Virus record (IMG/VR): IMGVR_UViG_3300009593_000010
Location: 65,559-129,558 of that record
Source of the DNA: a virus
Direction: 5' to 3' (one strand)
Length of the DNA: 64,000 bases
Part shown: positions 10,113-55,263 of the stretch, piece after piece
How positions within the stretch are numbered: position 1 is the stretch's first letter
Layout: each line of letters begins with the position of its first letter
Notes under the pieces: generated by a model
Told to the model about the DNA's origin: nothing
Seen by the model: the letters and a program-made list of their open reading frames with translations, nothing else
Database searches by the model: none
Translations under genes and position numbers: made by a program

Positions 10113-10140
10113 TGGACAAATACCACTTTTGTGGTATAAT
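10113..10140 (+). promoter_or_regulatory. sigma70-type promoter, 16-bp spacer class (uvsY)
   Basis: TGGACA-N16-TATAAT with TGTG extension; ACAAA-N7-TTTGT inverted repeat. Confidence 0.65.
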
Positions 10141-10146
10141 AATATT

Positions 10147-10593
10147 ATGAACTTAGAACAAATTCAAGAGGAATGGAAGAAAGACTCTGTTATCGAGAAG
10201 ATAGATATGGATGTTTCTTCAATGGAGACTCCAAGACTCCATGCAAAATACCTAGAAGAACTCTCTTCTAAAAGACTTACCTATAAAAAATATGAAGTAG
10301 AATACAACAAACTACTTAAAAATAAGTGGTTATGGTTTACTGGCAAGATGGATTACGATCAAGTGGAGAGTCTAGGGTGGAACCAAGACCCATTTGATGG
10401 TTTAACTGTTCTTAAATCAGACTACCAATACTACTTTAATGCAGATGAAGACCTTACTAAACTCAAATTAAAGATGGAATATCTTGATGAGTGTATTAGT
10501 GTTTTAAAAGACATCCTAAATATTATTACTTGGAGACATCAATCAATCAAAAATGCAATAGATTGGTTGAAATTCACTAACCCAGCAGGTTAA
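10147..10593 (+). CDS. uvsY: recombination mediator UvsY
   Basis: MNLEQIQEEWKKDSVI, LHAKYL, WRHQSIKNAIDWLKF. Confidence 0.92.
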   Translation: MNLEQIQEEWKKDSVIEKIDMDVSSMETPRLHAKYLEELSSKRLTYKKYEVEYNKLLKNKWLWFTGKMDYDQVESLGWNQDPFDGLTVLKSDYQYYFNADEDLTKLKLKMEYLDECISVLKDILNIITWRHQSIKNAIDWLKFTNPAG

Positions 10594-10599
10594 TATATT

Positions 10600-11259
10600 A
10601 TGCCATCTTTTCTGAAACAACCTTTAGTAACAATACCAGATGCACTCTCACCAGAAGTTTGTGAAGAGTTAATTCATATTGGAAAGAATACACAACTGAG
10701 TCATGGTGCAATTGGGGCTGCAGATACACCAACATTTGAACAGAATTCTAGGAAGAGTGTAATTTCTTGGATACCAGATAATTGTGCATTACAAAATGGG
10801 ATGGAAATTCAAAAGGATATAATGTGGCCATTAGCAAATCAAGTCAATGATGACTACTTTGGTTTTGATTTGACATGGCACGAAGCAAATCAATTTACAA
10901 CCTATACTGCACCAGATGAACATTATGATTGGCATTGTGATGGACATTTTGAGTTGTATGGGGAGAACGAAACCCCAACTCCACATCCAGATGCTAAAGG
11001 GTTGTATCGAAAACTGTCATACAGTGTCATACTTTCCCATCCAGACGATTCAGAGGGTGGAGACTTTTCATGGATAGATTTTACTTCACTTAATCCTCAA
11101 ATGGATTGGGGTTTGATAGAGAATACAGTCCCAGCAAGTGCAAGAAATCAAGGAACAGTAATTTTCTTCCCTTCCTTTATGTATCATAAAGTGGGTAGAG
11201 TAAGCAGAGGAACACGACATTCGTTAGTAGGATGGATATCAGGCCCACGATTCAAATAA
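10600..11259 (+). CDS. 2OG-Fe(II) oxygenase (PKHD/prolyl-hydroxylase-like)
   Basis: HYDWHCD, RKLSYS, GGDF, FFPSFMYHKV, RHSLVGW. Confidence 0.9.
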   Translation: MPSFLKQPLVTIPDALSPEVCEELIHIGKNTQLSHGAIGAADTPTFEQNSRKSVISWIPDNCALQNGMEIQKDIMWPLANQVNDDYFGFDLTWHEANQFTTYTAPDEHYDWHCDGHFELYGENETPTPHPDAKGLYRKLSYSVILSHPDDSEGGDFSWIDFTSLNPQMDWGLIENTVPASARNQGTVIFFPSFMYHKVGRVSRGTRHSLVGWISGPRFK

Positions 11260-12665
11260 CCAAATTAGATAATACTTACTTGATGGTAAAGTCAGAAGAC
11301 GGAATCAATCGAGAATTGTCAGACTATTTCACTTTCCCAGTTCCTGGCGCAAAGTTCATGCCTTCTGTTAGAAACAGATATTGGGATGGAAACATTAGAT
11401 TATATTCATTAAGTGATGGTAAAATATACTCTGGATTGTTATATGCAGTTCAACAGTTTGCTAAGGATAGGGGATATCAATGTGAAGGATACCAGTGGGA
11501 AACAGAAGTTGAAGAGTCGAATCATATCGAAAACTTGGGATTACCTTTTGAAGTTAGGGATTACCAAAGAGAAGCTATTTCTGTTGGGATTAAGAATAAA
11601 CGATCCTTATTGGTATCACCTACTGCCAGTGGTAAGTCCCTTATTATATATGCTCTTGCACGACATTTTTTAAAGACTAATAAGAAAAGAGTATTAGTTA
11701 TTGTACCAACAACATCATTAGTAGAACAGATGGCAACAGATTTTGAGGATTATGGGTACACAAAACCCATTGATAAGATGTATGGTGGTAATAAAATTGG
11801 TGATACTGAGATAGTAGTTACTACATGGCAAACATTATCTAAGATGCCAAAATCATTTTACACTCATTTTGGTGCAGTCTTTGGAGATGAAGCACATCTC
11901 TTTAAGGCAAAAGTCCTATCTGGTATAATGAATAAGATGACACATATAGGTCATAGGATAGGAACTACTGGTACTTTGGATGATACTCAATGCAATAAAT
12001 TAGTATTAGAAGGTTTATTCGGCCCTACTCATTATGTCACAACTTCTGCTGATCTTATGGATGAGGGTGTTCTTGCAGAGTTAAATATACAATGTTTAGT
12101 CCTAAAGTACCCTAAAGAGGTATCTAAAATAGTATCCCAGATGGATTATCCCAGAGAAATGGAGTTTTTAGTCGATAATAAACGAAGGAATCGTTTTATT
12201 CGTAATTTAGTGCAAGATAGGGGTGGTAATACCCTTATTCTCTTCCAGTATGTAGAAAAACATGGAAAACAGTTATATGATGAGTTCCTACAACTAGGTG
12301 GTAACTTATTCTTCATATATGGTAAGACAGACACACTTGCACGAGAAGAGGCCAGAAAGATTATGGAGAAGTCTGAAAGTGCAACAATAATTGCATCTTA
12401 TGGAACTTTTTCTACTGGTATAAATATTGAGAACCTAGATAACATTGTCTTTGCATCACCATCTAAATCTAAGATTAGAATTTTACAATCCATCGGAAGA
12501 GTTTTAAGGAGAGGGAAGACTGCAAAGGCAACAGTATACGATATTGCAGATGATCTTTCTTTTGGCAGAAAGCACAATTATACCCTAAAACACTTTAAAG
12601 AAAGAATAAATACCTATAGTAAAGAGAAGTTTTCTTACACAATACACGACATAGAGTTTAAATGA
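11232..12665 (+). CDS. uvsW: DNA helicase UvsW
   Basis: WDGNIRLY, SPTASGKS, DEAH, QSIGRVLR. Confidence 0.96.
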   Translation: MDIRPTIQITKLDNTYLMVKSEDGINRELSDYFTFPVPGAKFMPSVRNRYWDGNIRLYSLSDGKIYSGLLYAVQQFAKDRGYQCEGYQWETEVEESNHIENLGLPFEVRDYQREAISVGIKNKRSLLVSPTASGKSLIIYALARHFLKTNKKRVLVIVPTTSLVEQMATDFEDYGYTKPIDKMYGGNKIGDTEIVVTTWQTLSKMPKSFYTHFGAVFGDEAHLFKAKVLSGIMNKMTHIGHRIGTTGTLDDTQCNKLVLEGLFGPTHYVTTSADLMDEGVLAELNIQCLVLKYPKEVSKIVSQMDYPREMEFLVDNKRRNRFIRNLVQDRGGNTLILFQYVEKHGKQLYDEFLQLGGNLFFIYGKTDTLAREEARKIMEKSESATIIASYGTFSTGINIENLDNIVFASPSKSKIRILQSIGRVLRRGKTAKATVYDIADDLSFGRKHNYTLKHFKERINTYSKEKFSYTIHDIEFK

Positions 12666-13135
12666 ATTACAAATACATAAGACTATCTACAGGTGAAAAT
12701 GTCATCTGTATTATAGAAAAGGTTGCACAAGGACAAGTCAATCTTGTAATGCCTATGATTGCAGACTTAGTTCCTTCTTTATTAGGTACAGGAACAGTAA
12801 TGAAACTCTCACCATTGATCCCCTATACAAAAGAATCAAGGATCACAGTAAACACATCAGATATAGTATACTCCTCAGAGATAACAGACCAGTTTGTTGA
12901 TTTCTATGATAAAGGGGTGAATGACTGGTTAAAGATTAGAGATGAATTGGGAATCGAAATCCGATCTCCTAAAGATGAATTGAGAGAAGCTAGAGGAATG
13001 AAAGAAATGTTACGAGAACATGCGTCTCGTTTCATTGAAAATGAATTAGGTGATGAACATAGGGACATGACCGATGAGGAACTAGAGATGGAGTTTAATG
13101 ATCTAATAGATTCAAAAGAGAAGATACTGCACTAA
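12662..13135 (+). CDS. hypothetical protein, Sm-like fold suspected
   Basis: YIRLSTGENVICII N-terminus similar to 47586; position between uvsW and gp55. Confidence 0.6.
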   Translation: MNYKYIRLSTGENVICIIEKVAQGQVNLVMPMIADLVPSLLGTGTVMKLSPLIPYTKESRITVNTSDIVYSSEITDQFVDFYDKGVNDWLKIRDELGIEIRSPKDELREARGMKEMLREHASRFIENELGDEHRDMTDEELEMEFNDLIDSKEKILH

Positions 13136-13171
13136 TTGCTATATCTATCCCTTTTCTAAAAGGACATTAAT

Positions 13172-13200
13172 ATTATATCATCAGACCTCAAGGCTGTCAA
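13172..13200 (-). promoter_or_regulatory. antisense sigma70 promoter
   Basis: Minus strand reads TTGACA-17 bp-TATAAT (plus strand attata 13172-77, tgtcaa 13195-200). Confidence 0.6.
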
Positions 13201-13233
13201 GTCTTTTTTTACTTAAATGTGAAAATACTTTAC

Positions 13234-13261
13234 TTGACAAATATCAATATTATGAGATAAT
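13234..13261 (+). promoter_or_regulatory. sigma70-type promoter, 16-bp spacer class (gp55)
   Basis: TTGACA-N16-GATAAT; ATG 6 nt downstream. Confidence 0.65.
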
Positions 13262-13267
13262 AAGCTT

Positions 13268-20400: not shown

Positions 20401-21105
20401 ATGATATATCTCAAGGGTATCAACTTAAAAAAAGCAAGAGAAGGTGTCCAGAGTATAATGAAATCTAAAAGTGATACTAATAGTATTGCTAAGATTGTAT
20501 TTGCATTTAATGGAAATTGTTTAGACAAAACCATTGATAAATGGACAGAGACACCTATGGGTCAAAGATACATGAATGGTGAAAGATTATGTGATCTATT
20601 CCCAGAAGGTAAAAATATGCCCAAAAAGTCATTGGGTTATGTACATTATGAATACCTAAACTACGACAAGATGGACGAGTTGAAGGTTAGAGTACCAATT
20701 AATAAAAATCTAATTACCAAAGATAAAGCTTTTGCAGATTGGAGTGTAGATTGTCATGACATAATGCACATCTTAACTGGATATGGTTCAGATGGTTTAG
20801 GTGAACTACTTAGAGCAGAGTACGAGATATCACAGAACTATATGCAAGGATGGAGATTAATTCTAACTGCATTCAAACTAAAGATGTTCTTTATAAACCC
20901 CTTAATGTTATATAGAATTAGACATATAATAAGAGAACCTAAAATTAGGGCCAAGAATTCTAACAACTTCCTCTTTCAAAATTGGTTTGATCTTCTCGAA
21001 GAAGATGTTGATTGGATACGAGCTAGGATATTAATGTTAGCCCCAACTGAGCATTATGAATTTCAACATCCTAGATTTGCACCTTTCATAGAATCACACT
21101 TCTGA
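20401..21105 (+). CDS. Coq4-like protein
   Basis: HDIMHILTGYGSDGLGE matches the Coq4 HDxxH(x)11E metal motif; SLGYVHYEYL upstream. Confidence 0.7.
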   Translation: MIYLKGINLKKAREGVQSIMKSKSDTNSIAKIVFAFNGNCLDKTIDKWTETPMGQRYMNGERLCDLFPEGKNMPKKSLGYVHYEYLNYDKMDELKVRVPINKNLITKDKAFADWSVDCHDIMHILTGYGSDGLGELLRAEYEISQNYMQGWRLILTAFKLKMFFINPLMLYRIRHIIREPKIRAKNSNNFLFQNWFDLLEEDVDWIRARILMLAPTEHYEFQHPRFAPFIESHF

Positions 21106-21183
21106 TAATCCAACAGCACGAGTGACCTTGTGCATCCTACCAGATTTCATAAGTCTATGAAATCTTTTACATAAATTTCTCAT
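21094..21183 (-). CDS. small basic peptide (29 aa, not in ORF track)
   Basis: MRNLCKRFHRLMKSGRMHKVTRAVGLSEV; preceded on the minus strand by TATATAATA. Confidence 0.45.
   Translation of the reverse strand: MRNLCKRFHRLMKSGRMHKVTRAVGLSEV
21142..21168 (+). terminator. rho-independent terminator
   Basis: AGATTTCATA-AGTC-TATGAAATCT 10-bp stem followed by TTT. Confidence 0.65.
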
Positions 21184-21201
21184 ACTATTATATATGACTT
21201 T

Positions 21202-21253
21202 GTGTCACACAAATGTCACATTTCCATTATCTCTCCATTCTCAGCATGTCACA
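21202..21253 (+). promoter_or_regulatory. Pho-box-like direct repeats
   Basis: TGTCACA at 21203, 21214 and 21247 (spacings 11 and 33 bp), immediately upstream of the -35 at 21259. Confidence 0.5.
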
Positions 21254-21258
21254 GTAAT

Positions 21259-21288
21259 TTGACTGTAGGGTACATTTTTTGATATAAT
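21259..21288 (+). promoter_or_regulatory. early-type promoter, 18-bp spacer class (tRNA-Asp)
   Basis: TTGACT-GTAGGGTACATTTTTTGA-TATAAT. Confidence 0.75.
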
Positions 21289-21315
21289 GTATCTAATGTG
21301 CAATGCAAAAATATC

Positions 21316-21392
21316 GGTCTGGTAGTTCAATTGGTTAGAATACTGCCCTGTCACGGCAGTGGTTGTGGGTTCGAGTCCCATCCAGATCGCCA
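21316..21392 (+). tRNA. trnD: tRNA-Asp(GTC)
   Basis: Cloverleaf: GGTCTGG/CCAGATC acceptor, CTGCC-CTGTCAC-GGCAG anticodon arm, TTCGAGT T loop, encoded CCA. Confidence 0.96.
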
Positions 21393-21400
21393 CATTCTTA

Positions 21401-21430
21401 TTGACTGTAGGGTACATAAAATTGTATAAT
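21401..21430 (+). promoter_or_regulatory. early-type promoter, 18-bp spacer class
   Basis: TTGACT-GTAGGGTACATAAAATTG-TATAAT; ATG 6 nt downstream. Confidence 0.8.
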
Positions 21431-21436
21431 AGGTAC

Positions 21437-23896
21437 ATGAGAGAAAACATCCCAAATATGGTAAATAGGAATCAAAAAGACAATCTTGCAAGACTCCTTG
21501 CATCAGAAGATTTAGTCATTGAACACAAAAAATGTCCTACTGCATACTTTGAATTGAAGGCAAGGAAACTTGTTTGTCCAATTCTTAAAGACGATATGTC
21601 GTCTAATCTTTATGACTTGTTTATGGGTCATGAAGTTGGTCATGCATTAAATACTCCAGAAGAAGGATGGCATTCTGCAGCTTCTAAAAAAGGTGCAAAA
21701 TATAGAGGATACCTTAATGTCCTAGAGGATGTTAGGATCGAAAAAGCAATCAAAGAAAAATATGCTGGACTTCGTAGATGTTTCTACGATGCATATAAAG
21801 AATTACATCATGATCTTGACTTCTTTGGAGTCAAAAAAATGAATGTAAATAAACTTGCATTTATCGATAGAATCAATCTTTATTTTAAAGTTGGTCACTC
21901 CTTAATGGTAGATTTCTCTCCAACAGAATTAAAAATAATCAACACTATAGCAACCAAAATGGATACTTGGGAAAAAGTTGTGATCATGGCAGATCACTTG
22001 TTTGAACTTTCCAAGTTAGAAGATGTTGAGCCTCAAGAACAACCAAACCCAATGCAAGTTCCACAATTTGACGATGAAGATGGTACTCCAGAATCAGACG
22101 ATGAATCTGAGTCTATGCCAATGGGTGGTGATGATGAAGAAAATGAAGAAGGTGAAGATGGTGAATCTTCATCTGGTAATGAACCTTCGGATGAAGATGC
22201 TGAAGGAGAATCAGATAGTTCAGAATCTTCGGATGAAAAAGATGAAGATGATAACACCACTGATGGTGAGGGTACTGAAAAATCAGATGAAGATGAACAA
22301 GTTGAATCATCTAAAGAAGGTGGTCAAGATGGTGGTGAGGCAAATGAGTCTATCACTGATAAGAATTCAAGAGAAAATGAGAAGGATTTCCTTCATGAAG
22401 ATAATGATACTACTTACGGCACTGATAACGAATACTACGAGTTAAATACTTCCAATTGGAAATTTCAAGATCATAAAGTTGGGTACAAACAAATCTTTGC
22501 AGATTTTGATAATTACTGGAATACTAATACTTATACAAATGAACAATACGATTCAGAGACAGACTCTTATGTAAGTGTAGGTCTTAACGATACTACTGAT
22601 GCAGAAAGATATGTTAATGAGTTTATGTCTCATAACCAAAAGATTGTCAATTACATGGCAAAAGAATTTGATATGAGAAAAGCTGCAGCAATGTACAAAA
22701 GATCAAGGTCTGCCAAGTCTGGTGAGATCGATATGAGTAAAATCCAAAACTACTTAATTAAAGATGATATCTTTAAAAGAGTTAACATCGTTCCAGATGG
22801 TAAAAATCATGGTATGATCATGTTGCTTGACTGGTCTGGATCAATGAGTGATTGCATTAAAGAAACAGTTGAACAATGTGTGATCCTTGCAATGTTTTGC
22901 AGAAGAGTTGGTATTCCTCATAGAGTTTATGCATTCAGTGATGCATACAACAAAAGAAATGGTAAAAGATTTCTTGGTCAAAAAATTTGGAATGAAGATG
23001 ATCAAAAATTAGAAGGTGAAGAAAGAACTGCCCAAAGTGATTTTCGTCATGAAGAAGCAAGAGCAGAAGTTAAAGCTGTTATTGAAAGAGGTGATGCTTA
23101 TGTTGGTAAAACAAGATTATTAGAATTCTTCTCAGACAAAATGAATAATAACGATTTCAAAAAAATGTTAGTCAATGTTTTCTGTGCAGTCGAATCAATG
23201 AATTATAGCAGAAGAAAAGGTGAGTTTGCAAATCCAATGTCTTATGCTCCAGATAACTACAGACTCGGTGGAACACCACTTGATGAAAGTTTACTGATAA
23301 TGAGAGATTACATTGTAGATTTCAAAATAAACTACAACCTTGATAAACTTCAATTCGTGACTCTTACAGATGGATCAAGTTTTGATGCTAATGGACTGAA
23401 CTACAAACATGGTAATTCAAAATTCCACGATAGAAAAGCAAGAAAAACTTACGAATACAATTCAAGATATGGTAGAAGGTATGGTGCCCTTAAAGGTTCT
23501 GGAACTGATACTTTACTTAACTGGATAGAAGATACCACTGGTGTTGATACAGTTGGGTTCTTTATTTGTGGTCAAGGGTACAGAGACTTTGATAGTGCTT
23601 GTAATCAGTTTTCAAAAATGGACTTGGATTACAGTGAAGAGTACGAAAGAAACCAAGAAGGTCATAAAATCTTCAAAAAAGAAGGTGGATACAAATTAGA
23701 ATGTGGGCCATTGTCTGGATACAAAGAGTTCTATCTTTTAAACAAAAAGAAAATGCAGATCGATACTGATGCAGACAACCTCAATGTAGAAGAGGGTGCA
23801 TCTAAACAAAAACTTAAAGGTGCAATGCTGAGAATGGGTAAAAACAAACTTGCTCAAAGAAAAATCCTTCAACACTTCATTAAGAAGGTTGCTTGA
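21437..23896 (+). CDS. metallopeptidase-like + vWA domain protein (CobT-like)
   Basis: HEVGH and NVLEDVRIE near N-terminus, acidic linker, LLDWSGSM MIDAS, GGTP, LTDG. Start moved from 21359, which lies inside the tRNA. Confidence 0.85.
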   Translation: MRENIPNMVNRNQKDNLARLLASEDLVIEHKKCPTAYFELKARKLVCPILKDDMSSNLYDLFMGHEVGHALNTPEEGWHSAASKKGAKYRGYLNVLEDVRIEKAIKEKYAGLRRCFYDAYKELHHDLDFFGVKKMNVNKLAFIDRINLYFKVGHSLMVDFSPTELKIINTIATKMDTWEKVVIMADHLFELSKLEDVEPQEQPNPMQVPQFDDEDGTPESDDESESMPMGGDDEENEEGEDGESSSGNEPSDEDAEGESDSSESSDEKDEDDNTTDGEGTEKSDEDEQVESSKEGGQDGGEANESITDKNSRENEKDFLHEDNDTTYGTDNEYYELNTSNWKFQDHKVGYKQIFADFDNYWNTNTYTNEQYDSETDSYVSVGLNDTTDAERYVNEFMSHNQKIVNYMAKEFDMRKAAAMYKRSRSAKSGEIDMSKIQNYLIKDDIFKRVNIVPDGKNHGMIMLLDWSGSMSDCIKETVEQCVILAMFCRRVGIPHRVYAFSDAYNKRNGKRFLGQKIWNEDDQKLEGEERTAQSDFRHEEARAEVKAVIERGDAYVGKTRLLEFFSDKMNNNDFKKMLVNVFCAVESMNYSRRKGEFANPMSYAPDNYRLGGTPLDESLLIMRDYIVDFKINYNLDKLQFVTLTDGSSFDANGLNYKHGNSKFHDRKARKTYEYNSRYGRRYGALKGSGTDTLLNWIEDTTGVDTVGFFICGQGYRDFDSACNQFSKMDLDYSEEYERNQEGHKIFKKEGGYKLECGPLSGYKEFYLLNKKKMQIDTDADNLNVEEGASKQKLKGAMLRMGKNKLAQRKILQHFIKKVA

Positions 23897-23897
23897 T

Positions 23898-23927
23898 TTG
23901 ACTGTAGGGTACATAAAAGTGTATAAT
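23898..23927 (+). promoter_or_regulatory. early-type promoter, 18-bp spacer class
   Basis: TTGACT-GTAGGGTACATAAAAGTG-TATAAT. Confidence 0.8.
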
Positions 23928-23962
23928 AGAAACATGAAAGATTATTTAAAAAAAGGAGAACT

Positions 23963-25156
23963 ATGAATTTAAATGCAAATCATTATAGGTTCTTAGATGC
24001 TTGTGCAGAACAAATGCCCGGCACTACGGAATTTAGTAAATCAACAGTGAGGAAAGTATGTGATACTGCTGGTATCCCATTCCCATCATGGTTGATTAGA
24101 AAACCCCAGTTTAAAGCTGGTTATGGTACTTACTCGATTGAGAGTATTGTTTCGGCGGGTTATACCTCAACTCCAGCAGTTGCAAATGCAACTCCAACAA
24201 CACCAAGTGTTGATGTGGTTCCTGTTCCACAGGCCCCAGTTGGGTTTAATGTTTTGGATGATAATATTAATATTATTCCTTCAAAGATTCCTAATTATGT
24301 CCCTTTTGGACATTTTAACGATTTAAAGAAAATCCTAAAATCTGGAATTTTCTTCCCAGTTTTCATAACTGGACTTTCTGGAAACGGAAAAACTTTAATG
24401 GTTGAACAATTATGTGCTCAAATCAGACGAGAACTTTTCAGAGTTAACTTTACAGAAGAAACTTGTGAAGATGATTTGATTGGTTCCAACACTTTGGTGA
24501 ATGGAAACATCATGTTTAGAGAAGGCCCAGTCCTTAAAGCAATGAGGAAAGGTGCTGTTCTTCTTCTTGATGAAGTCGATCTTGGTTCTAACAAGATCAT
24601 GTGCTTACAATCCATCTTGGAAGGTAAAGGATACTTAATCAAAAAGACTGGTGAAATGGTCGAACCTGCTGAGGGTTTCACAATTTGTGCAACTGCAAAT
24701 ACAAAAGGTAAAGGTTCTGAGGATGGAAGGTTCATAGGAACCAACATCTTGAATGAAGCATTCCTTGAAAGGTTTGCAATCACTTTGGAACAAGAATATC
24801 CACCAGTGAGAACTGAACAAAAAATTGTCAAGAAAGAATTTGAACTTCTGGATTGTGTGGATGATGAATTTGCAGAGAACCTAGTTAACTGGGCTGATGT
24901 AATCAGAAAATCCTTCTACGAAGGTGCAGTTGATGAAGTGATCTCAACTAGAAGACTGGTTCACATTGCAAAAGCATTCTCAATGTTCAATGACAAAATC
25001 AAAAGTATTGAGGTTTGTCTTAACAGATTTGATGATGATACTAAATCATCATTCGTTGATCTCTACACCAAAGTTGACGCTGGGGTGTTAGGATCGGATG
25101 AATCAGAGTTTGCCACTGATAATGTGGAAGGTGAAACAGACGATGACATTATCTAA
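23963..25156 (+). CDS. MoxR/CobS-like AAA+ ATPase
   Basis: GLSGNGKT Walker A, LLLDEVD Walker B, ATANTKG, LNEAFLERF, ISTRRL. Confidence 0.9.
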   Translation: MNLNANHYRFLDACAEQMPGTTEFSKSTVRKVCDTAGIPFPSWLIRKPQFKAGYGTYSIESIVSAGYTSTPAVANATPTTPSVDVVPVPQAPVGFNVLDDNINIIPSKIPNYVPFGHFNDLKKILKSGIFFPVFITGLSGNGKTLMVEQLCAQIRRELFRVNFTEETCEDDLIGSNTLVNGNIMFREGPVLKAMRKGAVLLLDEVDLGSNKIMCLQSILEGKGYLIKKTGEMVEPAEGFTICATANTKGKGSEDGRFIGTNILNEAFLERFAITLEQEYPPVRTEQKIVKKEFELLDCVDDEFAENLVNWADVIRKSFYEGAVDEVISTRRLVHIAKAFSMFNDKIKSIEVCLNRFDDDTKSSFVDLYTKVDAGVLGSDESEFATDNVEGETDDDII

Positions 25157-25346
25157 TAAGAGTTTCTCTCCTTCGGATTTGAACCAACTCTCTATAAAAG
25201 AGTTGGTCAAATTCGTTTATGGTGACGAAAAGGGATGGAAGTTTGCTGGTGATATAGCAACTTCTCAATATGGAATAGAGATTAATCGAACAAGATTAAT
25301 CACAAGTGCAGTGGAAAAAATCAATAATCCATATGCTAAGGATTGA
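25143..25346 (+). CDS. hypothetical protein
   Basis: In-frame ATG with AGGTG SD overlapping the AAA gene end. Confidence 0.5.
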   Translation: MTLSNKSFSPSDLNQLSIKELVKFVYGDEKGWKFAGDIATSQYGIEINRTRLITSAVEKINNPYAKD

Positions 25347-25351
25347 AGTTT

Positions 25352-25435
25352 ATGAAACATGAACAAGAATTAAAATATCTAGTCCTGTTTATTTTAGGAT
25401 TTTGCATCGGATACTGGTGCGGAATTAATATATGA
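25352..25435 (+). CDS. small hydrophobic peptide (27 aa, not in ORF track)
   Basis: MKHEQELKYLVLFILGFCIGYWCGINI; ATGA coupling to next gene. Confidence 0.4.
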   Translation: MKHEQELKYLVLFILGFCIGYWCGINI

Positions 25436-25686
25436 TGACAGAGTATTCAGATCGAGTTAGAAGGCATGCAGAAAGAATGGAAGCCGAAGAGTGGGGTAAA
25501 AAGGTAAAGTACCTTCTTGCTCAAAATGGACAGATCATTATTGAATTTAACAATGGTGATAAAAGAATTGAGAATACCAAGACTGGAGTACAGACTTGGG
25601 AAAGATCAGAAATATCAAGAGAATCTTTAATTGATAAGTTCGGAAGGATTATGACTGATATGAGTTCTGGAAAAAAAGATGATTAA
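25432..25686 (+). CDS. hypothetical protein
   Basis: ORF track; normal codon usage. Confidence 0.6.
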   Translation: MMTEYSDRVRRHAERMEAEEWGKKVKYLLAQNGQIIIEFNNGDKRIENTKTGVQTWERSEISRESLIDKFGRIMTDMSSGKKDD

Positions 25687-25691
25687 TAATA

Positions 25692-25787
25692 GGGGCTACG
25701 GCTCGGGTATGGGACAGGGAAACGAGAACAACAAGGTGGACACTTTTATATCAGCACTTGTGTTGAAACTGCTTTCCCATCCCACCA
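25692..25787 (+). ncRNA. candidate structured RNA with ACCA 3' end
   Basis: cUACGg hairpin, then a long stem GGGtATGGGA/TCCCATCCC and CAACAAGGTG/CACTTGTGTTG ending in ACCA. Confidence 0.35.
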
Positions 25788-25797
25788 GTTTTGAATT

Positions 25798-26100
25798 ATG
25801 AAACAGATAGAAATGAATTTAGGAAAAAAGAAACCAGTAAGTGGTGGAATTGATAAGATGGAATTTGCAATTGCTATTGATGCAAGTGGTCAAGGTACAT
25901 ACAATCTCTTAGGAACATATGAAGAGATCGAATTTTACTGTGACTCCAACAATCTTTGGGTGGATAGGTATTTAGATTATGTTGCCCCATCCACTGTAAG
26001 ACAAGGTTTTAATTATGTGGGGTCTGGAAAGAATCCATATGAATTGCAAAGAGGGTTTAATTATAATACCCACGAACCAATAGTAGACAACAGTTTTTAA
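25798..26100 (+). CDS. hypothetical protein
   Basis: ORF track. Confidence 0.6.
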   Translation: MKQIEMNLGKKKPVSGGIDKMEFAIAIDASGQGTYNLLGTYEEIEFYCDSNNLWVDRYLDYVAPSTVRQGFNYVGSGKNPYELQRGFNYNTHEPIVDNSF

Positions 26101-26126
26101 CATACCATGCAGATAAGGAAAATAAC

Positions 26127-26258
26127 ATGGAAAACATTGAAATGGAACATCAAGAACATCGTAATCGCTTTAATAGGAAAAAGGTCGATGATCAGAAGAA
26201 GGTGATTGAAGACCAGATCGAAAGGATTATGGAACTTTTATACAAGAAAGATGAATAG
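26127..26258 (+). CDS. small hypothetical protein (43 aa, not in ORF track)
   Basis: AAGGA SD; MENIEMEHQEHRNRFNRKKVDDQKKVIEDQIERIMELLYKKDE. Confidence 0.5.
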   Translation: MENIEMEHQEHRNRFNRKKVDDQKKVIEDQIERIMELLYKKDE

Positions 26259-27510
26259 TAAACCAGAAGCTTATCTTTATTTAATAACAATTACATTTTT
26301 AGATGGATTGATAAAATATTATTTGGGATGGCACAAATTAGATAGAGGACTCTATGATGATGGATACTTACATTCCTCAAAAGATAAAGAATTAATAAAA
26401 GATTTCACTAACCCAGACAATGAGGTTACAAGAAAAATAATTGCAGAAGGTACAGAAGAAGATATGGCATATATGGAATATTCCAGACTTCAAAAGGCCG
26501 ATGCAATAAGGAATCCACTTTGGTACAACAAGTCTCATGGTGGTGGGGTTAATTTAAAAAAACATGGGAATATAAAAATGATAGATGAACTATGGGAAGA
26601 TATAAAGGCTAAGAAGTATTTACAGGATACTCAAAGAGATATGGACGATATACTTAAATGTAGAAGATGGCAAACTAGGTTAACACCTCTCATTCCATCA
26701 CATGTTCAAGTTATCAATGATAAAATCGTTGCCCTAAACTACAACATGTCTACATGGGAACCAATAATTTTCCTTAAAGATTTTGACGGGCCAGGTAAAG
26801 ATTTGCTTTATCAAGGATGTCATACAACAGCAGCTGCAGAGAAAACAAAAAGAGTAGGCTCAATTCCTCAGCAACTAATTCCAAAAAAAGTTTGGAGTAA
26901 ACTAAGTGAGATGGAATTAAAAACTCTTTGTAAAAGATTAAATCCACAAATTGAAAAACCATCAGAACCAACATCACCAGATGAGGCTGCACAATGGATG
27001 GCAGACAACTGGGAAAAGAATGGTGTTTCTGTAGAAGCAGAATCAAACTTTGTTGAATTAGAAAAATGGGGATTTGAAAGATATACTATCAAAAGGTCTT
27101 TGATTCCAAAAGCAGAGAAACTAATTGCAAAATTAAGAGCAATCCCATCAGACCATATCCAAATTGATTATACTTCTGGAACAGATAAGAAACATTTAGA
27201 TGGGTTGGTTGCTGATGCAAAACGAGGAAAAACACACTCTATGGCATTTTCTTCTTCATGGTTTAAGATGGATGAAGTTTTAGCCTTCCTTCTTAGAAAT
27301 AAAAAGAAAAAGCAGAAAGATAGAATGAACTTTATTAAATTTTATATACACCATACTGATGCTATAAACAAATCAAAATGGCAAAAAGAGTATGGTGCTA
27401 AAATTCATGAAGAATTAACAGAATTGAATGATTATGCAAAAGAAGAATACGCGGTTGAATTTGATATTGAAGAACTTGCATTCACAAGACCAAACCCTAT
27501 TAAAATTTAA
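26251..27510 (+). CDS. GIY-YIG domain protein with long C-terminal extension
   Basis: YLY...YYLGWH...GYLHSS...E...WYN pattern of GIY-YIG nucleases. Confidence 0.6.
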   Translation: MNSKPEAYLYLITITFLDGLIKYYLGWHKLDRGLYDDGYLHSSKDKELIKDFTNPDNEVTRKIIAEGTEEDMAYMEYSRLQKADAIRNPLWYNKSHGGGVNLKKHGNIKMIDELWEDIKAKKYLQDTQRDMDDILKCRRWQTRLTPLIPSHVQVINDKIVALNYNMSTWEPIIFLKDFDGPGKDLLYQGCHTTAAAEKTKRVGSIPQQLIPKKVWSKLSEMELKTLCKRLNPQIEKPSEPTSPDEAAQWMADNWEKNGVSVEAESNFVELEKWGFERYTIKRSLIPKAEKLIAKLRAIPSDHIQIDYTSGTDKKHLDGLVADAKRGKTHSMAFSSSWFKMDEVLAFLLRNKKKKQKDRMNFIKFYIHHTDAINKSKWQKEYGAKIHEELTELNDYAKEEYAVEFDIEELAFTRPNPIKI

Positions 27511-27511
27511 C

Positions 27512-27539
27512 TTGACAGATAAGGAATCTGTAGTATACT
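27512..27539 (+). promoter_or_regulatory. sigma70-type promoter, 16-bp spacer class
   Basis: TTGACA-GATAAGGAATCTGTAG-TATACT; ACAGA-N7-TCTGT. Confidence 0.7.
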
Positions 27540-27546
27540 GAATAGT

Positions 27547-27846
27547 ATGAATATAGAAATTAACTATAAATTTAATGAAGACAACCTTTTGGGTGAAATT
27601 AAAGATTATGTCGATGAAACTTATTCCCAACATTATGGTGGTGGTAAGTATCAAGCAACAGATATGATTCTTGATTCTGGACATGGGGAAGGCTTTGCAA
27701 TCGGTAACATTATGAAGTACGCAATGAGGTATGGAAAAAAGGGTGGGAAGAATCGTCAAGATATTTTGAAGGTTGTTCACTATGCTTTGATCGCATTGCA
27801 TAACCACGATGAAACTATAAATGAGGTAAATCATGAATCTAAGTAG
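27547..27846 (+). CDS. DUF3310-like protein
   Basis: HY...Q..D.I...GFAIGNIMKYAMRYGKKGG...DILK..HY. Confidence 0.8.
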   Translation: MNIEINYKFNEDNLLGEIKDYVDETYSQHYGGGKYQATDMILDSGHGEGFAIGNIMKYAMRYGKKGGKNRQDILKVVHYALIALHNHDETINEVNHESK

Positions 27847-28498
27847 TGAAACTATTAACCTTTTACAAAACTTCGGTAGTATCAATTCTGGTATTACAGT
27901 AAAAGTTGGGAATGAATTGAAAACAATTAGTCCCATGAAGAATATATTTGGTAAGGCAACTATTGCTGAAGACTTTGATCGAGAGTTTTCAATTTATGAC
28001 TTATCAGAATTTTTAGCAACCATATCATTATTTGATACACCAACTTTCGATTTTGGTGACACTTCTGTGACTTTGAGTGGAGACTCTTCAAAAGCAGTTT
28101 ATAATTATGCTGATTCAGCAATGATAATTTCTCCAGAGAAAGATATCACTATGCCAAATCCAGAAATTATATTTGAACTTGATAAAGAAACTCTTACAAA
28201 AATGGTCAAAAGTTCTGCCGTACTATCTCTTCCAGACTTAGTGTTAGAATCTGATGGAACAGATGTAACCTTAACAGTTAAAGATCGTAAAAACTCTTCA
28301 ACTAATAAGTATGGAGTTAGAGTTGCTGATGGAGATAACAGTGTATATTCAATGAATTTTAAGATAGAGAATCTTAAAGTTGTATCAGACGATTATACAG
28401 TTTATGTATCATCTAAAGGTATCTCACACTTTGTTGCAGTCAACAAGGGTGTTGAATACTTTATTGCTTTGGAACCAGATTCAAAGTATGGTGTCTAA
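27833..28498 (+). CDS. gp45: sliding clamp
   Basis: LSSETINLLQNFGSINSGI, FSIYDLSEFL, YFIALEPDS. Confidence 0.95.
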   Translation: MNLSSETINLLQNFGSINSGITVKVGNELKTISPMKNIFGKATIAEDFDREFSIYDLSEFLATISLFDTPTFDFGDTSVTLSGDSSKAVYNYADSAMIISPEKDITMPNPEIIFELDKETLTKMVKSSAVLSLPDLVLESDGTDVTLTVKDRKNSSTNKYGVRVADGDNSVYSMNFKIENLKVVSDDYTVYVSSKGISHFVAVNKGVEYFIALEPDSKYGV

Positions 28499-28502
28499 GT
28501 CA

Positions 28503-29921: not shown

Positions 29922-30683
29922 ATGAAGAAGTTAACTTTAGAAAATGATTTCAATATAAGAATGAATCTGGGTATTGACTATAAATCAATGACAGGATGGT
30001 GTGTTGAAAACGAAAATCATCCAGCACTATCCCATCAAGAGGATGGTATACAAGTACCAAACCAATTTAGTGATACTCTTAGATCATATGTAAGGGGTGC
30101 AACTGAGGGATCAAATCCAGATGAACATGATTGTATCGATGATGAACAATCAAAAGAAATTCAATTCTACCAAACATACAATCCATTTACTTTTGGAATA
30201 CCTTGTTTTGCAGACTTGTATTGGGCATTGAACAAGTTCTTTTATGAACATGATCAAGTCAAAGAGGCTGGAGAACCATATTACATACATGGGTGGTTTA
30301 ATGTTTATCATTCAAAGGTGGGTGAAGAGGGTTACGATCATATTCCGTGGCACAGGCATTTACATACTTTACATCCTCATATCTATCATGGATTTTATTG
30401 TGCAAATGTACAACCATCTGAAACTTGGTATCGATACTCTGCCCAATCACCAGAAGAAGATATCGTTAAGATTCCAGACTATGATGATATGTTAATCTTC
30501 TCTCAGAGTGGATATGAACATTGTTCATCTGCATGGAAGGGTGAAGTTCCACGAGTAACAGTTGCATTTGATATTATGCCAGAATCAGTCTATCTTGGAC
30601 TCCAAGAGATAGGAGATTCAGATTATCATTGGAGTTTAGATAGTAAACAATACCAAGCAATACCATTTCCATATTTACCATGA
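29922..30683 (+). CDS. 2OG-Fe(II) oxygenase-like protein
   Basis: HGWFNVY, IPWHRH, HGFYC, HCSS, RVTVAFDI; same pattern as 99-680. Confidence 0.7.
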   Translation: MKKLTLENDFNIRMNLGIDYKSMTGWCVENENHPALSHQEDGIQVPNQFSDTLRSYVRGATEGSNPDEHDCIDDEQSKEIQFYQTYNPFTFGIPCFADLYWALNKFFYEHDQVKEAGEPYYIHGWFNVYHSKVGEEGYDHIPWHRHLHTLHPHIYHGFYCANVQPSETWYRYSAQSPEEDIVKIPDYDDMLIFSQSGYEHCSSAWKGEVPRVTVAFDIMPESVYLGLQEIGDSDYHWSLDSKQYQAIPFPYLP

Positions 30684-42930: not shown

Positions 42931-44817
42931 ATGGGTAAATTCCTAACATCCTTCTGGATGGTCATTTTAGTTCTAGGTGGATTAACAACTCTTAGAATTG
43001 CAGACCCAGAGCCAATACAAAAGTTGCGAAATATAAATTTCGATTACTACCTTACATCTAAAGAAACTACCACTTCAAGTGACATTGTACTACTTGATGT
43101 TGCAGAAAGTAGTTTAGAACTCAAAGGTCAATATCCATTTCCCAGAACAGAATGGGCTCAAATGATTTCAGATTTAAGAAATGCAAATGCTGGAATGATT
43201 GGATTTACAGTAATGTATCCAGAAATTGATAGGTTTGGGGGTGATGAGGTTTTCGTCTCGTGGGTTAATGGTAATGGTATCATTTTATCCCAGACTTCAT
43301 CACCTAAAGGTAGGAGTGATATTGCACCATTTGTAGGAACTGCCGTCTTAGGGGATGGAGACCCATATAATTTTGCATATGAATATCAAGGTGTAGTCAC
43401 TAACATTCCAAAACTAGAAGAAGCTGCATGGGGTGTTGGTATGTTAAATTCTGCACCAGAGGTGGATGGAATCGTAAGACGAATACCTTTAGTCACTCAA
43501 GTTAATAATCAATTATATCCAAGTTTCCCTATGGAAGTTATTCGTGCAACTCAACAGAATAAAGGATACACCATGAAGGTAGAACCTTCTGGGATAGAGA
43601 ATTTTAGAATACCACCTTATGAACCAGTGGTGACAGATGAAACTGGTAGTTTATATGTAGACTGGTCTAAGTCTTTTCCTCGACATGAGTACGGGCAACC
43701 ACTTCCCAATCTTGAGGGACGAACAGTGATTGTTGGTTTGACAGCAGAGGGCATAGTTCCCATTGTTTCGAGTCCGATGGGTGGGGTGTATCCTCATGAT
43801 ATTCAGGCATCTGCGATTCAGACAATATTGGATGGGGTCTCCATTTCTCGTCCTTATTGGGGTTCCCTTCTGGAAATAGTTTTAACTCTAATTGGGTCTC
43901 TGGTCTTGGTATTTTCGATTTATCGATTCTCCGTTTTAACATCTGCACTCGTCTCCGGCCTTGTCGTTGCTGGTGTAGGTTTCTTGCCCTTGTTCTTCTG
44001 GACTTCATCAAGTTTCCTTATTGATTTAACATTCCCAATTATAACACTAATACTCATATTTAGTCAATCGAGTTTTAATAACTTCTATGTACAGTTCAAA
44101 TTAAGACAACAAATTAAAGGTCAGTTTGGTACTTACCTATCACCAGACATGGTAGACATGCTGGTCAAAGACCCATCATTAATGAAACTAGGTGGGGATA
44201 GAAAAGAGATGACATTCTTATTCGCAGACATTGTAGGGTTCACTCCTATAAGCGAGTCTTATATGAAGAGGGATGATCCAGAAGGTTTAGTAGAACTTAT
44301 CAATATGTTCTTAGATAGAATGACAAAGGTTATTCTCAAAAATGGTGGAACCATCGACAAGTATATGGGCGATTGTATCATGGCTTTCTGGAATGCTCCT
44401 CTACCATGTGAAGATCATGCAACTTTAGCAGTTAAAACTGCAATGGAAATAGAATTACTTACGGAACAAATGAATAAAGAGATTAAAGAGTCTGGATTAG
44501 AATTACCACCAGTGGTTATTGGTACAGGTATTAATACTGGCCCATGTATCGTAGGAAATATGGGAAGTGAATCCAGATTTGATTATTCAGTGGTCGGCGA
44601 TGCTGTGAATCTGGGTGCTAGATTAGAAGTACAAACTAGGACATATGATACACCTATCCTACTATCTGAATACACTTACATGCAATCTGATGTACCTTGT
44701 AAAGAACTTGACACTATTAAGGTAAAGGGTAAGGATGAACCAGTTAAAATATTTGCACCATTGTTTGAAATGCCTTTTGGGAATAGAAAAGAAGTACGGA
44801 AGTTAATTAAAACTTGA
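42931..44817 (+). CDS. CHASE2-domain class III adenylate cyclase
   Basis: DIVLLDV..SSL...GQYPFPR, DGIVRRIPL, three TM helices, FLFADIVGFT, DKYMGDCIMAFWNAP, DYSVVGDAVNLGARLE. Confidence 0.95.
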   Translation: MGKFLTSFWMVILVLGGLTTLRIADPEPIQKLRNINFDYYLTSKETTTSSDIVLLDVAESSLELKGQYPFPRTEWAQMISDLRNANAGMIGFTVMYPEIDRFGGDEVFVSWVNGNGIILSQTSSPKGRSDIAPFVGTAVLGDGDPYNFAYEYQGVVTNIPKLEEAAWGVGMLNSAPEVDGIVRRIPLVTQVNNQLYPSFPMEVIRATQQNKGYTMKVEPSGIENFRIPPYEPVVTDETGSLYVDWSKSFPRHEYGQPLPNLEGRTVIVGLTAEGIVPIVSSPMGGVYPHDIQASAIQTILDGVSISRPYWGSLLEIVLTLIGSLVLVFSIYRFSVLTSALVSGLVVAGVGFLPLFFWTSSSFLIDLTFPIITLILIFSQSSFNNFYVQFKLRQQIKGQFGTYLSPDMVDMLVKDPSLMKLGGDRKEMTFLFADIVGFTPISESYMKRDDPEGLVELINMFLDRMTKVILKNGGTIDKYMGDCIMAFWNAPLPCEDHATLAVKTAMEIELLTEQMNKEIKESGLELPPVVIGTGINTGPCIVGNMGSESRFDYSVVGDAVNLGARLEVQTRTYDTPILLSEYTYMQSDVPCKELDTIKVKGKDEPVKIFAPLFEMPFGNRKEVRKLIKT

Positions 44818-44841
44818 CAGATCAAGAATCTGTAGTATACT
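44814..44841 (+). promoter_or_regulatory. sigma70-type promoter, 16-bp spacer class
   Basis: TTGACA-GATCAAGAATCTGTAG-TATACT; ACAGA-N7-TCTGT. Confidence 0.7.
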
Positions 44842-45000: not shown

Positions 45001-45085
45001 TAGGTATTAAGAAATACCTATTTTAGAAGACTTGCCCATTTTTGGGGAGTCATATAACAACCTTGCTTAACAGGAGGCAATTATG
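45001..45085 (+). promoter_or_regulatory. ROSE-like RNA thermometer in hsp20 leader
   Basis: Two upstream hairpins, then CTTGCT-TAAC-AGGAG pairing the SD with a bulged G. Confidence 0.6.
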
Positions 45086-45544
45086 GTCAAATTAACGACT
45101 AATGATCTATTCGATCAAATGTGGAGAAGGTCTTCTCCATACACAATAGGGTTTGATAACATCTTTGAAGATTTAAAGTTTGTATCAAACAATCAACAAC
45201 CCTCATATCCACCTTACAATATCGTAAAGAAAAGTGATGAACTATTCTTAATCGAAATTGCAGTGGCAGGATTCGGAGAAGATGATCTGGATATCGAAGT
45301 TCAAGAAAACGAACTTAGAGTGACAGGTGAGATTCTCGATGAAGAGGAATCAGATGAAAATATCCATAAAGGTATTGCAAATAGAAAATTCAGAAGAATC
45401 TTCAAACTTGCAGAAGACCTTGTGGTTAATTCTCCATCATTAAAGAATGGAATGCTAAGTATTCCATGTGAGAGGATAATACCAGAGGAAAAGAAAGCAA
45501 GAAAACTAGAGATAGTAGATACTGCTGAATTTTTATCAGAATAA
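45083..45544 (+). CDS. hsp20: small heat shock protein (IbpA-like)
   Basis: YPPYNI, IEIAVAGF, HKGIANRKFRR.F.LA, L.NGML.I. Confidence 0.96.
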   Translation: MVKLTTNDLFDQMWRRSSPYTIGFDNIFEDLKFVSNNQQPSYPPYNIVKKSDELFLIEIAVAGFGEDDLDIEVQENELRVTGEILDEEESDENIHKGIANRKFRRIFKLAEDLVVNSPSLKNGMLSIPCERIIPEEKKARKLEIVDTAEFLSE

Positions 45545-45557: not shown

Positions 45558-45590
45558 TTGACAAATCTCCATTCTGTGGTATTATAAATA
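45558..45590 (+). promoter_or_regulatory. overlapping 16-bp-spacer promoter and late TATAAATA
   Basis: TTGACA-N16-TATTAT plus TATAAATA at 45583. Confidence 0.6.
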
Positions 45591-48138: not shown

Positions 48139-48166
48139 TTGACAGATAGCAGTTCTGTAGTATAAT
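48139..48166 (+). promoter_or_regulatory. sigma70-type promoter, 16-bp spacer class (gp43)
   Basis: TTGACA-GATAGCAGTTCTGTAG-TATAAT; ACAGA-N7-TCTGT. Confidence 0.75.
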
Positions 48167-51264: not shown

Positions 51265-51292
51265 TTGACAGATGGGAGTTTCGTAGTATAAT
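51265..51292 (+). promoter_or_regulatory. sigma70-type promoter, 16-bp spacer class (uvsX)
   Basis: TTGACA-GATGGGAGTTTCGTAG-TATAAT. Confidence 0.7.
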
Positions 51293-51324
51293 AGATATAT
51301 TACTGAAAAATTTGAGACTATATT

Positions 51325-54426: not shown

Positions 54427-54430
54427 GTTA

Positions 54431-54506
54431 GGGGCTGTAGCTCAGTAGGGAGAGCGACTGGTTTGCATCCAGTAGGTCGTAGGTTCGATTCCTATCAGCT
54501 CCACCA
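54431..54506 (+). tRNA. trnA: tRNA-Ala(TGC)
   Basis: GGGGCTG/CAGCTCC acceptor with G3:U70, ACTGG-TTTGCAT-CCAGT anticodon arm, TTCGATT T loop, encoded CCA. Confidence 0.97.
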
Positions 54507-54523
54507 AAATTCATCAAATAAGT

Positions 54524-54553
54524 TTGACACTAGGGTACATAAAAGTGTATAAT
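54524..54553 (+). promoter_or_regulatory. early-type promoter, 18-bp spacer class
   Basis: TTGACA-CTAGGGTACATAAAAGTG-TATAAT. Confidence 0.8.
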
Positions 54554-54748
54554 GTATACATAGATGGAAAAAAGTATCAAGAAATTAACCAAAAAAGTCG
54601 TGGGTTCGTTGCCCATCCACCTTAGAGTTGGAACCAAAAGATTAGTAACCCTAATTGAGGCAGACAAAATTGGTTTGATACCAGTCCTAACTTCGACGCC
54701 TTTGATGTGGTCTCTCAAGTTAGGGCTGAATTTCAACTTATTTAAGAC

Positions 54749-54850
54749 ATGAGAGTTCCAAGAGCAAAAAAGGAAGTTATTAACTCTCTATCAAGGAAAG
54801 AAAAAAAGAAGAACAAAAAACTCTCAAATAAGAGAGTTCGTAAATTATGA
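54749..54850 (+). CDS. small basic peptide (33 aa, not in ORF track)
   Basis: MRVPRAKKEVINSLSRKEKKKNKKLSNKRVRKL; ATGA coupling to 54847. Confidence 0.45.
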   Translation: MRVPRAKKEVINSLSRKEKKKNKKLSNKRVRKL

Positions 54851-55056
54851 ATAAATTGGTTGTATCAAAAAACGGAATTCCAAGAGATATCATTCTCAAT
54901 TCAAAGGAATGTCAGTTGATTTCTGATAAAACAAATATCAATGCATCATGGGATTTATGTTGTAAGTCCATAAAATCAAGGACAGGATTAGACATTATCG
55001 GAAATTTTGATCTAGTATCAGTAACTATTGAAGGAAATACATGGCCTCTACACTAA
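54847..55056 (+). CDS. hypothetical protein
   Basis: ORF track. Confidence 0.6.
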   Translation: MNKLVVSKNGIPRDIILNSKECQLISDKTNINASWDLCCKSIKSRTGLDIIGNFDLVSVTIEGNTWPLH

Positions 55057-55262
55057 CATATTTAAAGGAAATTACAGTTTGGGATAAGTGTGATTTTAAT
55101 GTCCCAAATCATACCTATATTTTTGATGAAAAAGGTAAGAATGTTGGGTATATAAAAACAGGGACAAAGGAAGAAATATTCTTCCCAAAACCATCTATCC
55201 AGTTCTCTAAGGCAAGACGAAGGTTCATAAAACTTGACAGAGGGGTACATAAAATTGTATAA
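55041..55262 (+). CDS. hypothetical protein
   Basis: AAGGA SD; KEITVWD...VPNHTY...F.K.RR.F. Confidence 0.65.
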   Translation: MASTLTYLKEITVWDKCDFNVPNHTYIFDEKGKNVGYIKTGTKEEIFFPKPSIQFSKARRRFIKLDRGVHKIV

Positions 55263-55263
55263 T
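55234..55263 (+). promoter_or_regulatory. early-type promoter, 18-bp spacer class
   Basis: TTGACA-GAGGGGTACATAAAATTG-TATAAT. Confidence 0.8.

Follow-up and report, generated by a model that had tools for sequence, protein, structure and literature searches.

How is pre-replicative transcription ordered in T4-like phages without MotA and AsiA? Reviews have called this ordering unclear (PMC2984593), and the question is raised again by a 64,000-nucleotide stretch of viral DNA (the window) that forms the second half, positions 65559-129558, of the IMG/VR record IMGVR_UViG_3300009593_000010. An earlier reading of its letters (the original prediction) proposed two sets of sigma-70-like promoters in this window, with spacers of 18 and 16 bp, which sort by the function of the genes that follow. 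Our analysis revealed two promoter classes of fixed geometry, each with sequence elements of its own and each conserved in related phages: class A, in which an 18-bp spacer carries a GGTRC box, and class B, in which a 16-bp spacer goes with a TG-type extended -10. Positions are those of the window unless marked 'genome'.

The record is linear, 129,558 bp long with 36% G+C, and was estimated to be ~71% complete (CheckV). Its T4-like gene set includes UvsY, gp55, gp45, gp62, gp43, UvsX, gp33, RegA and RNase H, accompanied by CobT/CobS, Hsp20 and peroxiredoxin. MotA and AsiA had been described as not recognisable, and PF09010, PF09158 and PF09114 (AsiA, MotCF, MotA_activ) indeed had no match at E <= 1 in six frames, a negative that holds for the ~71% complete record. 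Among the phage records shown in the searched collection, none has a gp43 polymerase more than 47% identical to the one encoded here; the best are cyanomyoviruses and the OM43 phage Melnitz. IMG/VR contigs with gp43 at 75% and ~53% identity exist, and CobS is 75-84% identical at the amino-acid (aa) level in more than 40 IMG/VR contigs.

Two promoter classes of fixed geometry

Class A has seven members in the 129.6-kb record, which follow the pattern TTGAC-N5-GGTRC-N9-TATAAT or, written in full, TTGAC(A/T)-nnr-GGGTACAT-(A/T tract)-TATAAT, with a near-perfect -10. The box, GGT(A/G)C(A) and here GGTACA, lies at about -26 to -21, 5 nt past TTGAC, and no other G/C island in the spacer is conserved. 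The octamer GGGTACAT was found seven times genome-wide, each time within a promoter of this build; two copies lie beyond the window, at genome 4819 (+) and genome 26996 (-). The predicted hexamers, 18-bp spacers and GGGTACAT were present at all five sites in the window:

21259-21288 (+): class A promoter, TTGACT, 18-bp spacer with GGGTACAT, TATAAT; before tRNA-Asp (21316-21392)
21401-21430 (+): class A promoter; cobT-like open reading frame (ORF) 21437-23896, ATG 6 nt past the -10
23898-23927 (+): class A promoter; 10-codon leaderless upstream ORF (uORF), then cobS (23963-25156) and small ORFs
54524-54553 (+): class A promoter directly 3' of tRNA-Ala; then unknown ORFs of 62, 69 and 73 aa
55234-55263 (+): class A promoter; 10-codon leaderless uORF, then ORFs of 91, 128 and 54 aa and an NT5C-type nucleotidase

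Class B has ten members in the record, with TTGACA(A/G)AT, a 16-bp spacer and a TG-type extended -10 whose hexamer is looser (GATAAT, TAAAAT, TATACT). The two that lie beyond the window precede RNase H (genome 740) and gp33 (genome 8577). Hexamers and spacers at the eight sites in the window were likewise as predicted:

10113-10140 (+): class B promoter, TGGACA, 16 bp, TGTGG-TATAAT; uvsY at 10147, 6 nt past the -10
13234-13261 (+): class B promoter; gp55 late sigma factor at 13268, 6 nt past the -10
27512-27539 (+): class B promoter; DUF3310 ORF of 99 aa at 27547, 7 nt past the -10, then gp45 and gp44
34405-34432 (+): class B promoter; 56-aa ORF at 34439, 6 nt past the -10, then gp62 and RegA
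44814-44841 (+): class B promoter, 240 nt 5' of hsp20 (45083-45544)
45558-45585 (+): class B promoter, then peroxiredoxin; a late-type TATAAATA at 45583-45590 overlaps the -10 (TATTAT)
48139-48166 (+): class B promoter, 12/12; gp43 DNA polymerase at 48174, 7 nt past the -10
51265-51292 (+): class B promoter, 12/12; before uvsX (51325), then a 459-aa ORF

The 13 window sites and the 4 further genome sites match the sigma-70 hexamers at 11-12 of 12 positions. Against 200 dinucleotide shuffles (+ strand, matches of at least 11/12), both spacer lengths were in excess: 10 matches were observed at 16 bp (1.7 +/- 1.2 in shuffles) and 6 at 18 bp (1.7 +/- 1.3). The 3 matches at 17 bp, all inside coding sequence, were at chance level (1.6 in shuffles). 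On the sense strand in windows 5' of gene starts, counted at 10/12 or better and compared with an antisense control, there were 10 sites at 16 bp, 7 at 18 bp and none at 17 bp. The claim that none of the 13 sense promoters has 17 bp was borne out, and the whole record gave no convincing 17-bp sense promoter; a perfect 17-bp promoter is present antisense (13200). To call the spacers non-canonical was too strong, since sigma-70 spacers range over 15-19 nt with an optimum of 17 (PMC9303308), which makes 16 and 18 bp suboptimal but ordinary. The unusual feature is that the 17-bp optimum is avoided altogether.

The start codons gave an independent view of the same register. ATG stands exactly 6 nt past the -10 in 45 of 84 unique clade sequences of class A and 31 of 61 of class B, together 76/145, where chance gives ~2% per offset. 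Because this offset anchors the register independently, the -10 hexamers are correctly placed and the spacer lengths real. In the record itself, uvsY, gp55, the DUF3310 ORF, the 56-aa ORF, gp43 and cobT all start 6-7 nt past the -10, on or beside the predicted transcription start. Judged by these offsets, both classes share one predicted start-site geometry, in which transcription would start 7 nt past the -10 and would, in very many cases, begin with the A of the ATG. The products would be leaderless mRNAs, probably including the cobT-like mRNA from the 21401 promoter, or leaderless uORFs of 10-11 codons. Such uORFs were found at three class A sites, with a stop that overlaps the main start (ATGA, TAGTG):

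23934-23966 (+): leaderless uORF, class A promoter
55270-55304 (+): leaderless uORF, class A promoter
genome 26960-26925 (-): leaderless uORF, class A promoter

At four class A sites the distance between the first base of the -35 and the main start codon is exactly 68 nt.

The two classes sort by gene content. A T4-core replication, recombination or late-transcription gene is the first identifiable gene at 8 of 10 class B promoters and at none of the 7 class A promoters (hypergeometric p ~0.002). Class B heads uvsY, gp55, gp33, gp45, gp62, gp43, uvsX, RNase H, hsp20 and peroxiredoxin; class A heads tRNA-Asp, cobT, cobS and small unknown ORFs without a family match. The original gene assignments were confirmed with PHROGs (UvsY, gp55, gp45, gp62, Hsp20, peroxiredoxin, UvsX, CobT-like, CobS) and tblastn (gp43). 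Two needed correction in their order only: gp45 and gp62 do lie downstream of 27512 and 34405, but as second genes, behind the 99-aa DUF3310 ORF and the 56-aa ORF, respectively.

Apart from spacer length, the classes differ in the discriminator, which has C at alternating positions in class A and is of the A/T(G) type without C in class B (G+C 1.96/6 vs 1.00/6). Length is in fact perfectly confounded with the box in class A, with the extended -35 and TG-type -10 in class B, and with the discriminators. Because the classes also differ in box, TG element and discriminator, length alone need not be the signal. The earlier interpretation is therefore supported in part: two function-sorted classes exist and are conserved clade-wide, but the support does not extend to length as the signal, to different timing or to a phage factor.

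Several further observations were made around these promoters. The class A operon of genome 4819 includes, at genome 6579-7222, a SET-domain protein (110 aa, PF00856, E = 8e-12) and a 102-aa Zn-ribbon protein with a weak match to a PHROG 'transcriptional regulator' family. TGTCACA, present 8 times in the whole window, occurs 3 times within 50 bp (21203-21253) just 5' of the tRNA-Asp class A promoter, and ATGTCACAGTAA recurs 5' of the equivalent promoter in the relative L097. A dyad, ACAGA-N7-TCTGT, was seen at 5 class B sites of the genome; it was rejected as a general feature, as inverted repeats in clade class B spacers score 3.08 vs 3.11 in column-permuted controls and the dyad is also missing from the gp43 promoter of the nearest relatives. 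Rfam gave the two tRNAs and nothing else.

Conservation in relatives and outgroups

Five related records (413 kb) were searched, with the reversed pattern as control. TTGACA-N16-KANAAT gave 27 matches vs 2 for the control, and TTGACN-N18-KANAAT gave 28, of which 25 contain the box. TTGACA-N17-KANAAT gave 6 vs 2; none of these fits the consensus of either class, and the conserved divergent antisense site described below accounts for at least one of them (G001:44089). A larger set of ~685 kb of clade DNA, made up of related IMG/VR loci and this genome, contained 46 unique sequences with TTGAC, GGTRC and TANAAT at gaps of 5 and 9 nt and 0 at the other gap combinations tested. Promoters with TTGACA(A/G)A were found in 33 unique sequences at 16 bp vs 2 at 17 bp.

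Individual genes kept their class. Orthologues of cobT have 44 of 46 matches at 18 bp and those of cobS 16 of 16, while the DUF3310/gp45 unit has 24 of 33 at 16 bp (a further 8, at 19 bp, count the same sites a second time) and gp55 has 11 matches at 16 bp. No orthologous gene switches class. Both classes are thus conserved across the clade with the same spacing and the same downstream genes. The information content of the box in sequence logos is on a par with that of the hexamers, and the box is kept in some relatives where the -35 has decayed to TTGCAT. One relative, G001, has GGGTGC in 5 of 7 boxes, a concerted within-genome variant. Across divergent relatives the flanks and the A/T tract vary freely; box, hexamers and spacing are fixed. 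An IMG/VR-wide variable-gap scan was uninformative on geometry, as among the matches listed most were unrelated generic promoters.

Outgroups have a different spacer at the same genes. A 17-bp spacer precedes gp43, uvsX and gp55 in the ~53% gp43 clade, in HTVC008M and in cyanophage-like contigs, including 45 gp43-upstream matches, and accounts for 67 of 99 unique matches in cyanophage-like relatives. Since the outgroups use 17 bp before the same genes, the 16-bp state is derived in this clade. The ~53% clade and some of the cyanophage-like contigs likewise have an ATG 6-7 nt past the -10.

The sister-clade contig G006 (the record of L008) has 18-bp promoters at 3209, 13261 and 37053 (-). They carry other G/C-rich boxes, TGCGGTGCGCC, TGCCTCCGC and TGCCCTATGC, at the same spacer position directly after TTGACA(A/C)TGC, and the gp43-type promoters of this contig are at 17 bp. 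The sequences of this small sample from one contig hint that a long spacer with a G/C box is older than the particular box. In HTVC008M (L124, 17400-23200), the promoters of cobT, cobS and one small ORF share a TGATAGGAT -10 (TAGGAT) and those of gp55, gp43 and denV share TGATATAAT (TATAAT), with 17-bp spacers in both sets. Judging from these motifs, a two-class split by gene set may also be present in HTVC008M, coded in the -10.

Two antisense sites are conserved as well. The perfect 17-bp promoter mentioned above is divergent to the gp55 promoter:

13172-13200 (-): divergent antisense promoter, 12/12, 17-bp spacer, TGn

No ORF follows: the frame reads MSF and stops. Many relatives have a counterpart, in most cases with TACCCT as the -10, and the predicted start of the transcript, ATGTATCGTGGGAAAAGAGAG, is conserved. 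The site is a candidate promoter for an antisense or small RNA. A site with an 18-bp spacer, TTGACTAAATATGAGTAT..TATAAT, at 44038-44067 (-) within the adenylate-cyclase-like gene is conserved in G001 and G004 and may reflect either coding constraint or a real antisense promoter.

Possible meanings of the two classes

We propose, with moderate confidence, that these are two sequence-defined and differently regulated sigma-70 promoter classes, and that the box would be read by a trans-acting partner. Both would be promoters for the host primary sigma-70-type RNA polymerase, with class identity set by sequence elements at fixed positions and spacer length as a rigid corollary. Class A, which heads tRNAs, cobT/cobS and operons of small take-over-type genes, would be immediate-early. 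Class B, with genes for replication and recombination and for gp33, gp55 and gp45, would be delayed-early or middle-like. The last three are T4-type late-transcription factors, all encoded here, and the structural genes are preceded by late promoters (TATAAATA(CT)); because class B drives gp33, gp55 and gp45, it must act before late transcription. We consider this temporal assignment the most economical reading. The trans-acting partner of the GGTRC box could be a phage early protein or a lineage-specific contact of RNA polymerase.

Several points weigh against this proposal. The proposed timing is deduced solely from the genes that each class heads and from parallels in T4 and cyanophages, and by Escherichia coli rules both classes look factor-independent and could fire together. 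A search for sequencing runs covering 20500-28500 listed none with RNA. Spacers of 16 and 18 bp may also be the norm of the host RNA polymerase. The unique sequences counted above share ancestry, and their number exaggerates how many independent cases there are. Of ~60 proteins screened with PHROGs and Pfam, none emerged as a DNA-binding candidate for the box; the recognisable regulators were limited to gp33, gp55, RegA and the weak Zn-ribbon match, and one Atlas look-up for a reader candidate returned a low-confidence model and no lead. With the record ~71% complete, a regulator may be missing or unseen.

Among the rivals, a mere difference of descent survives best, though we think it improbable. 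The two classes would then be two lineages of strong constitutive pre-replicative promoters, with no regulatory distinction, spread by cassette descent, duplication or gene conversion and reflecting module history. It is in keeping with this that the class A copies of the record are near-identical over ~30 bp, and the four class A sites with the 68-nt distance from -35 to start codon look cassette-like. Promoter early stem-loop (PeSL) cassettes, that is, conserved early-promoter cassettes repeated in one genome, are documented in T4-type phages (PMC2839356, PMC4122927). Box and geometry are here, however, conserved across genomes and not just among within-genome copies: relatives with 75-84% aa identity in CobS vary in the flanks and keep box, hexamers and spacing, and the constancy of class at orthologous genes argues in the same direction. 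The upstream stem-loops, the defining half of PeSLs, are inconsistent: of 17 upstream segments, only those of 10113, 13234 and genome 740 have a fold that clearly beats shuffles (z <= -2.5), and none of these 3 belongs to a class A site. Descent also leaves the absence of 17 bp unexplained.

Less likely still is that spacer length itself is read, as the original prediction had it, by a phage early protein or by an RNA polymerase that has been modified or remodelled, so that use shifts from 18-bp to 16-bp promoters in a functional substitute for MotA/AsiA. The strict bimodality without 17-bp sense promoters would fit such a mechanism, as would the failure to find MotA and AsiA, and the concerted change from 17 to 16 bp relative to outgroups at the same genes suggests a changed reading machinery. 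The RNA polymerase of a different host could explain that change equally well, however, and an unmodified sigma-70 holoenzyme can use both 16 and 18 bp (PMC9303308). Length is wholly confounded with class-specific sequence elements, and no candidate factor appeared among the proteins screened.

The lowest-ranked alternative is a factor-free twist sensor, with opposite topology responses of the two classes: 18 bp would be favoured on highly negatively supercoiled DNA and 16 bp on relaxed DNA, as the topology of the phage template or of the host changes in the course of infection. Both classes avoid the topology-neutral 17 bp, and the discriminator is richer in G/C in class A and of the A/T type in class B. 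In E. coli, discriminator G/C content points the same way as the spacer-twist effect. A published model with data also has short spacers expressed more at relaxed and long ones at highly negative levels (PMC9303308). We nevertheless doubt this explanation, because according to the same paper the model fails for 16-nt spacers (PMC9303308), the invariant GGTRC box at one fixed position is left unexplained, and the replication genes are needed before replication can relax the template.

A bolder formulation, which we regard as unlikely, is that the clade has replaced sigma appropriation of the MotA/AsiA type with a switch built from geometry, in which spacer length and box form a temporal code. 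Use of 18-bp/GGTRC or 16-bp/TG promoters would then follow a changing state of template or polymerase, such as superhelicity, a small unrecognised early protein or the modification state of the G/C box. Relevant to the last of these, genes for a C5-methylase, a TET/JBP oxygenase and a TET-associated glycosyltransferase are present in the phage.

These genes belong, with an epimerase, to the gp44-gp62 interval (30680-34431), which by its gene content is a probable cytosine hypermodification cassette. ACGT is absent genome-wide (0 vs ~125 expected from ACG, CGT and CG counts), absent from 38 kb of the 75% relatives, and found 23 times vs 293 expected in 418 kb of CobS-clade loci; its depletion is merely mild in outgroups. 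CCGG (6 vs 26) and GATC (0.58) are also low in the genome. The absence of ACGT looks like strong restriction-site avoidance or a modification-linked constraint. A role of the box as a special GTAC site gained no support, GTAC being only mildly under-represented (0.70). An attempt to assign the host through the ammonium-transporter gene was abandoned, as its matches (53-61%), to diverse Gammaproteobacteria and others, are too weak.

Comparison with known promoter systems

The promoter grammar is real and conserved, and from our searches apparently undescribed: no literature description of this two-class grammar was found, and a text search for the box gave primer noise only. It provides an explicit grammar of two fixed-geometry classes for a widespread uncultured marine T4-like clade. 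On pelagimyophages, the published approaches to middle and late promoters of cyanophages were unsuccessful (PMC7029224), and Melnitz was annotated with 'early' BPROM promoters only (PMC9004378). The GGTRC box is a defined element to mutate or to use as bait, and the predicted +1 positions, many of them leaderless, can improve operon and start-codon annotation. The locus is also a rare natural case for asking whether spacer length serves as a regulatory signal, and the pattern points to some mechanism that would keep two pre-replication gene sets apart.

The spacer-length dependence of supercoiling sensitivity (Forquet et al. 2022, PMC9303308) is a known physical route to differential use of 16- and 18-bp spacers. 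That effect is statistical and genome-wide, in E. coli and Dickeya, and involves neither a conserved spacer box nor phage timing. In promoters of the MerR type a factor binds a sequence centred near -24 within an unusually long spacer, which resembles the layout of class A. That sequence is a dyad, and the spacer is 19-20 bp long. The class A spacer, in contrast, is 18 bp and its box asymmetric, and no conserved spacer dyad was found in either class, the best inverted repeats equalling column-permuted controls.

Closer parallels come from T4-like phages. The cyanomyoviruses Syn9 and S-PM2 and phage RB49 lack motA and asiA and have sigma-70-like promoters before homologues of T4 early and middle genes; their late promoters are NATAAATA, with early/late overlap at some genes (PMC2984593). 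The peroxiredoxin promoter (45558/45583) has the same arrangement, and its overlap (45558-45590) is conserved in relatives; its sequence marks it as a dual early/late promoter, a type known from RB49 and S-PM2. The 13 window sites are not of the T4 late type, which has TATAAATA at the -10 and no -35, and the one at 45558 is the only one overlapped by it. In Syn9, according to Doron et al. 2016 (ISME J), early genes reportedly have a novel element and middle genes host-like promoters. Upstream regions of small Syn9 genes have a GTGACA...GTGTCCAC-like element, not TTGAC with GGTRC.

T4 middle promoters resemble class B in heading replication, recombination and late-factor genes and in keeping the -10, often with TGn. 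In T4 the MotA box, (a/t)(a/t)(a/t)TGCTTtA, is centred at -30, 12 +/- 1 bp from the -10, and replaces the -35 (PMC2988021), whereas class B keeps a consensus TTGACA at 16 bp. No TGCTT MotA box is visible in the aligned sites, and both classes keep TTGAC(A). The T4 early 'uber' promoters (UP/-35/TGn/-10) share with those described here the (here predicted) dependence on host sigma-70, excellent hexamers and extra conserved positions, and they too head early and tRNA-type genes (PMC2988021). The difference lies in what the additional positions hold, which in class A is a single G/C box at a fixed place in an obligatory 18-bp spacer. Phage promoter classes for host RNA polymerase are a known kind of system; what appears to be new here is this particular two-class grammar.

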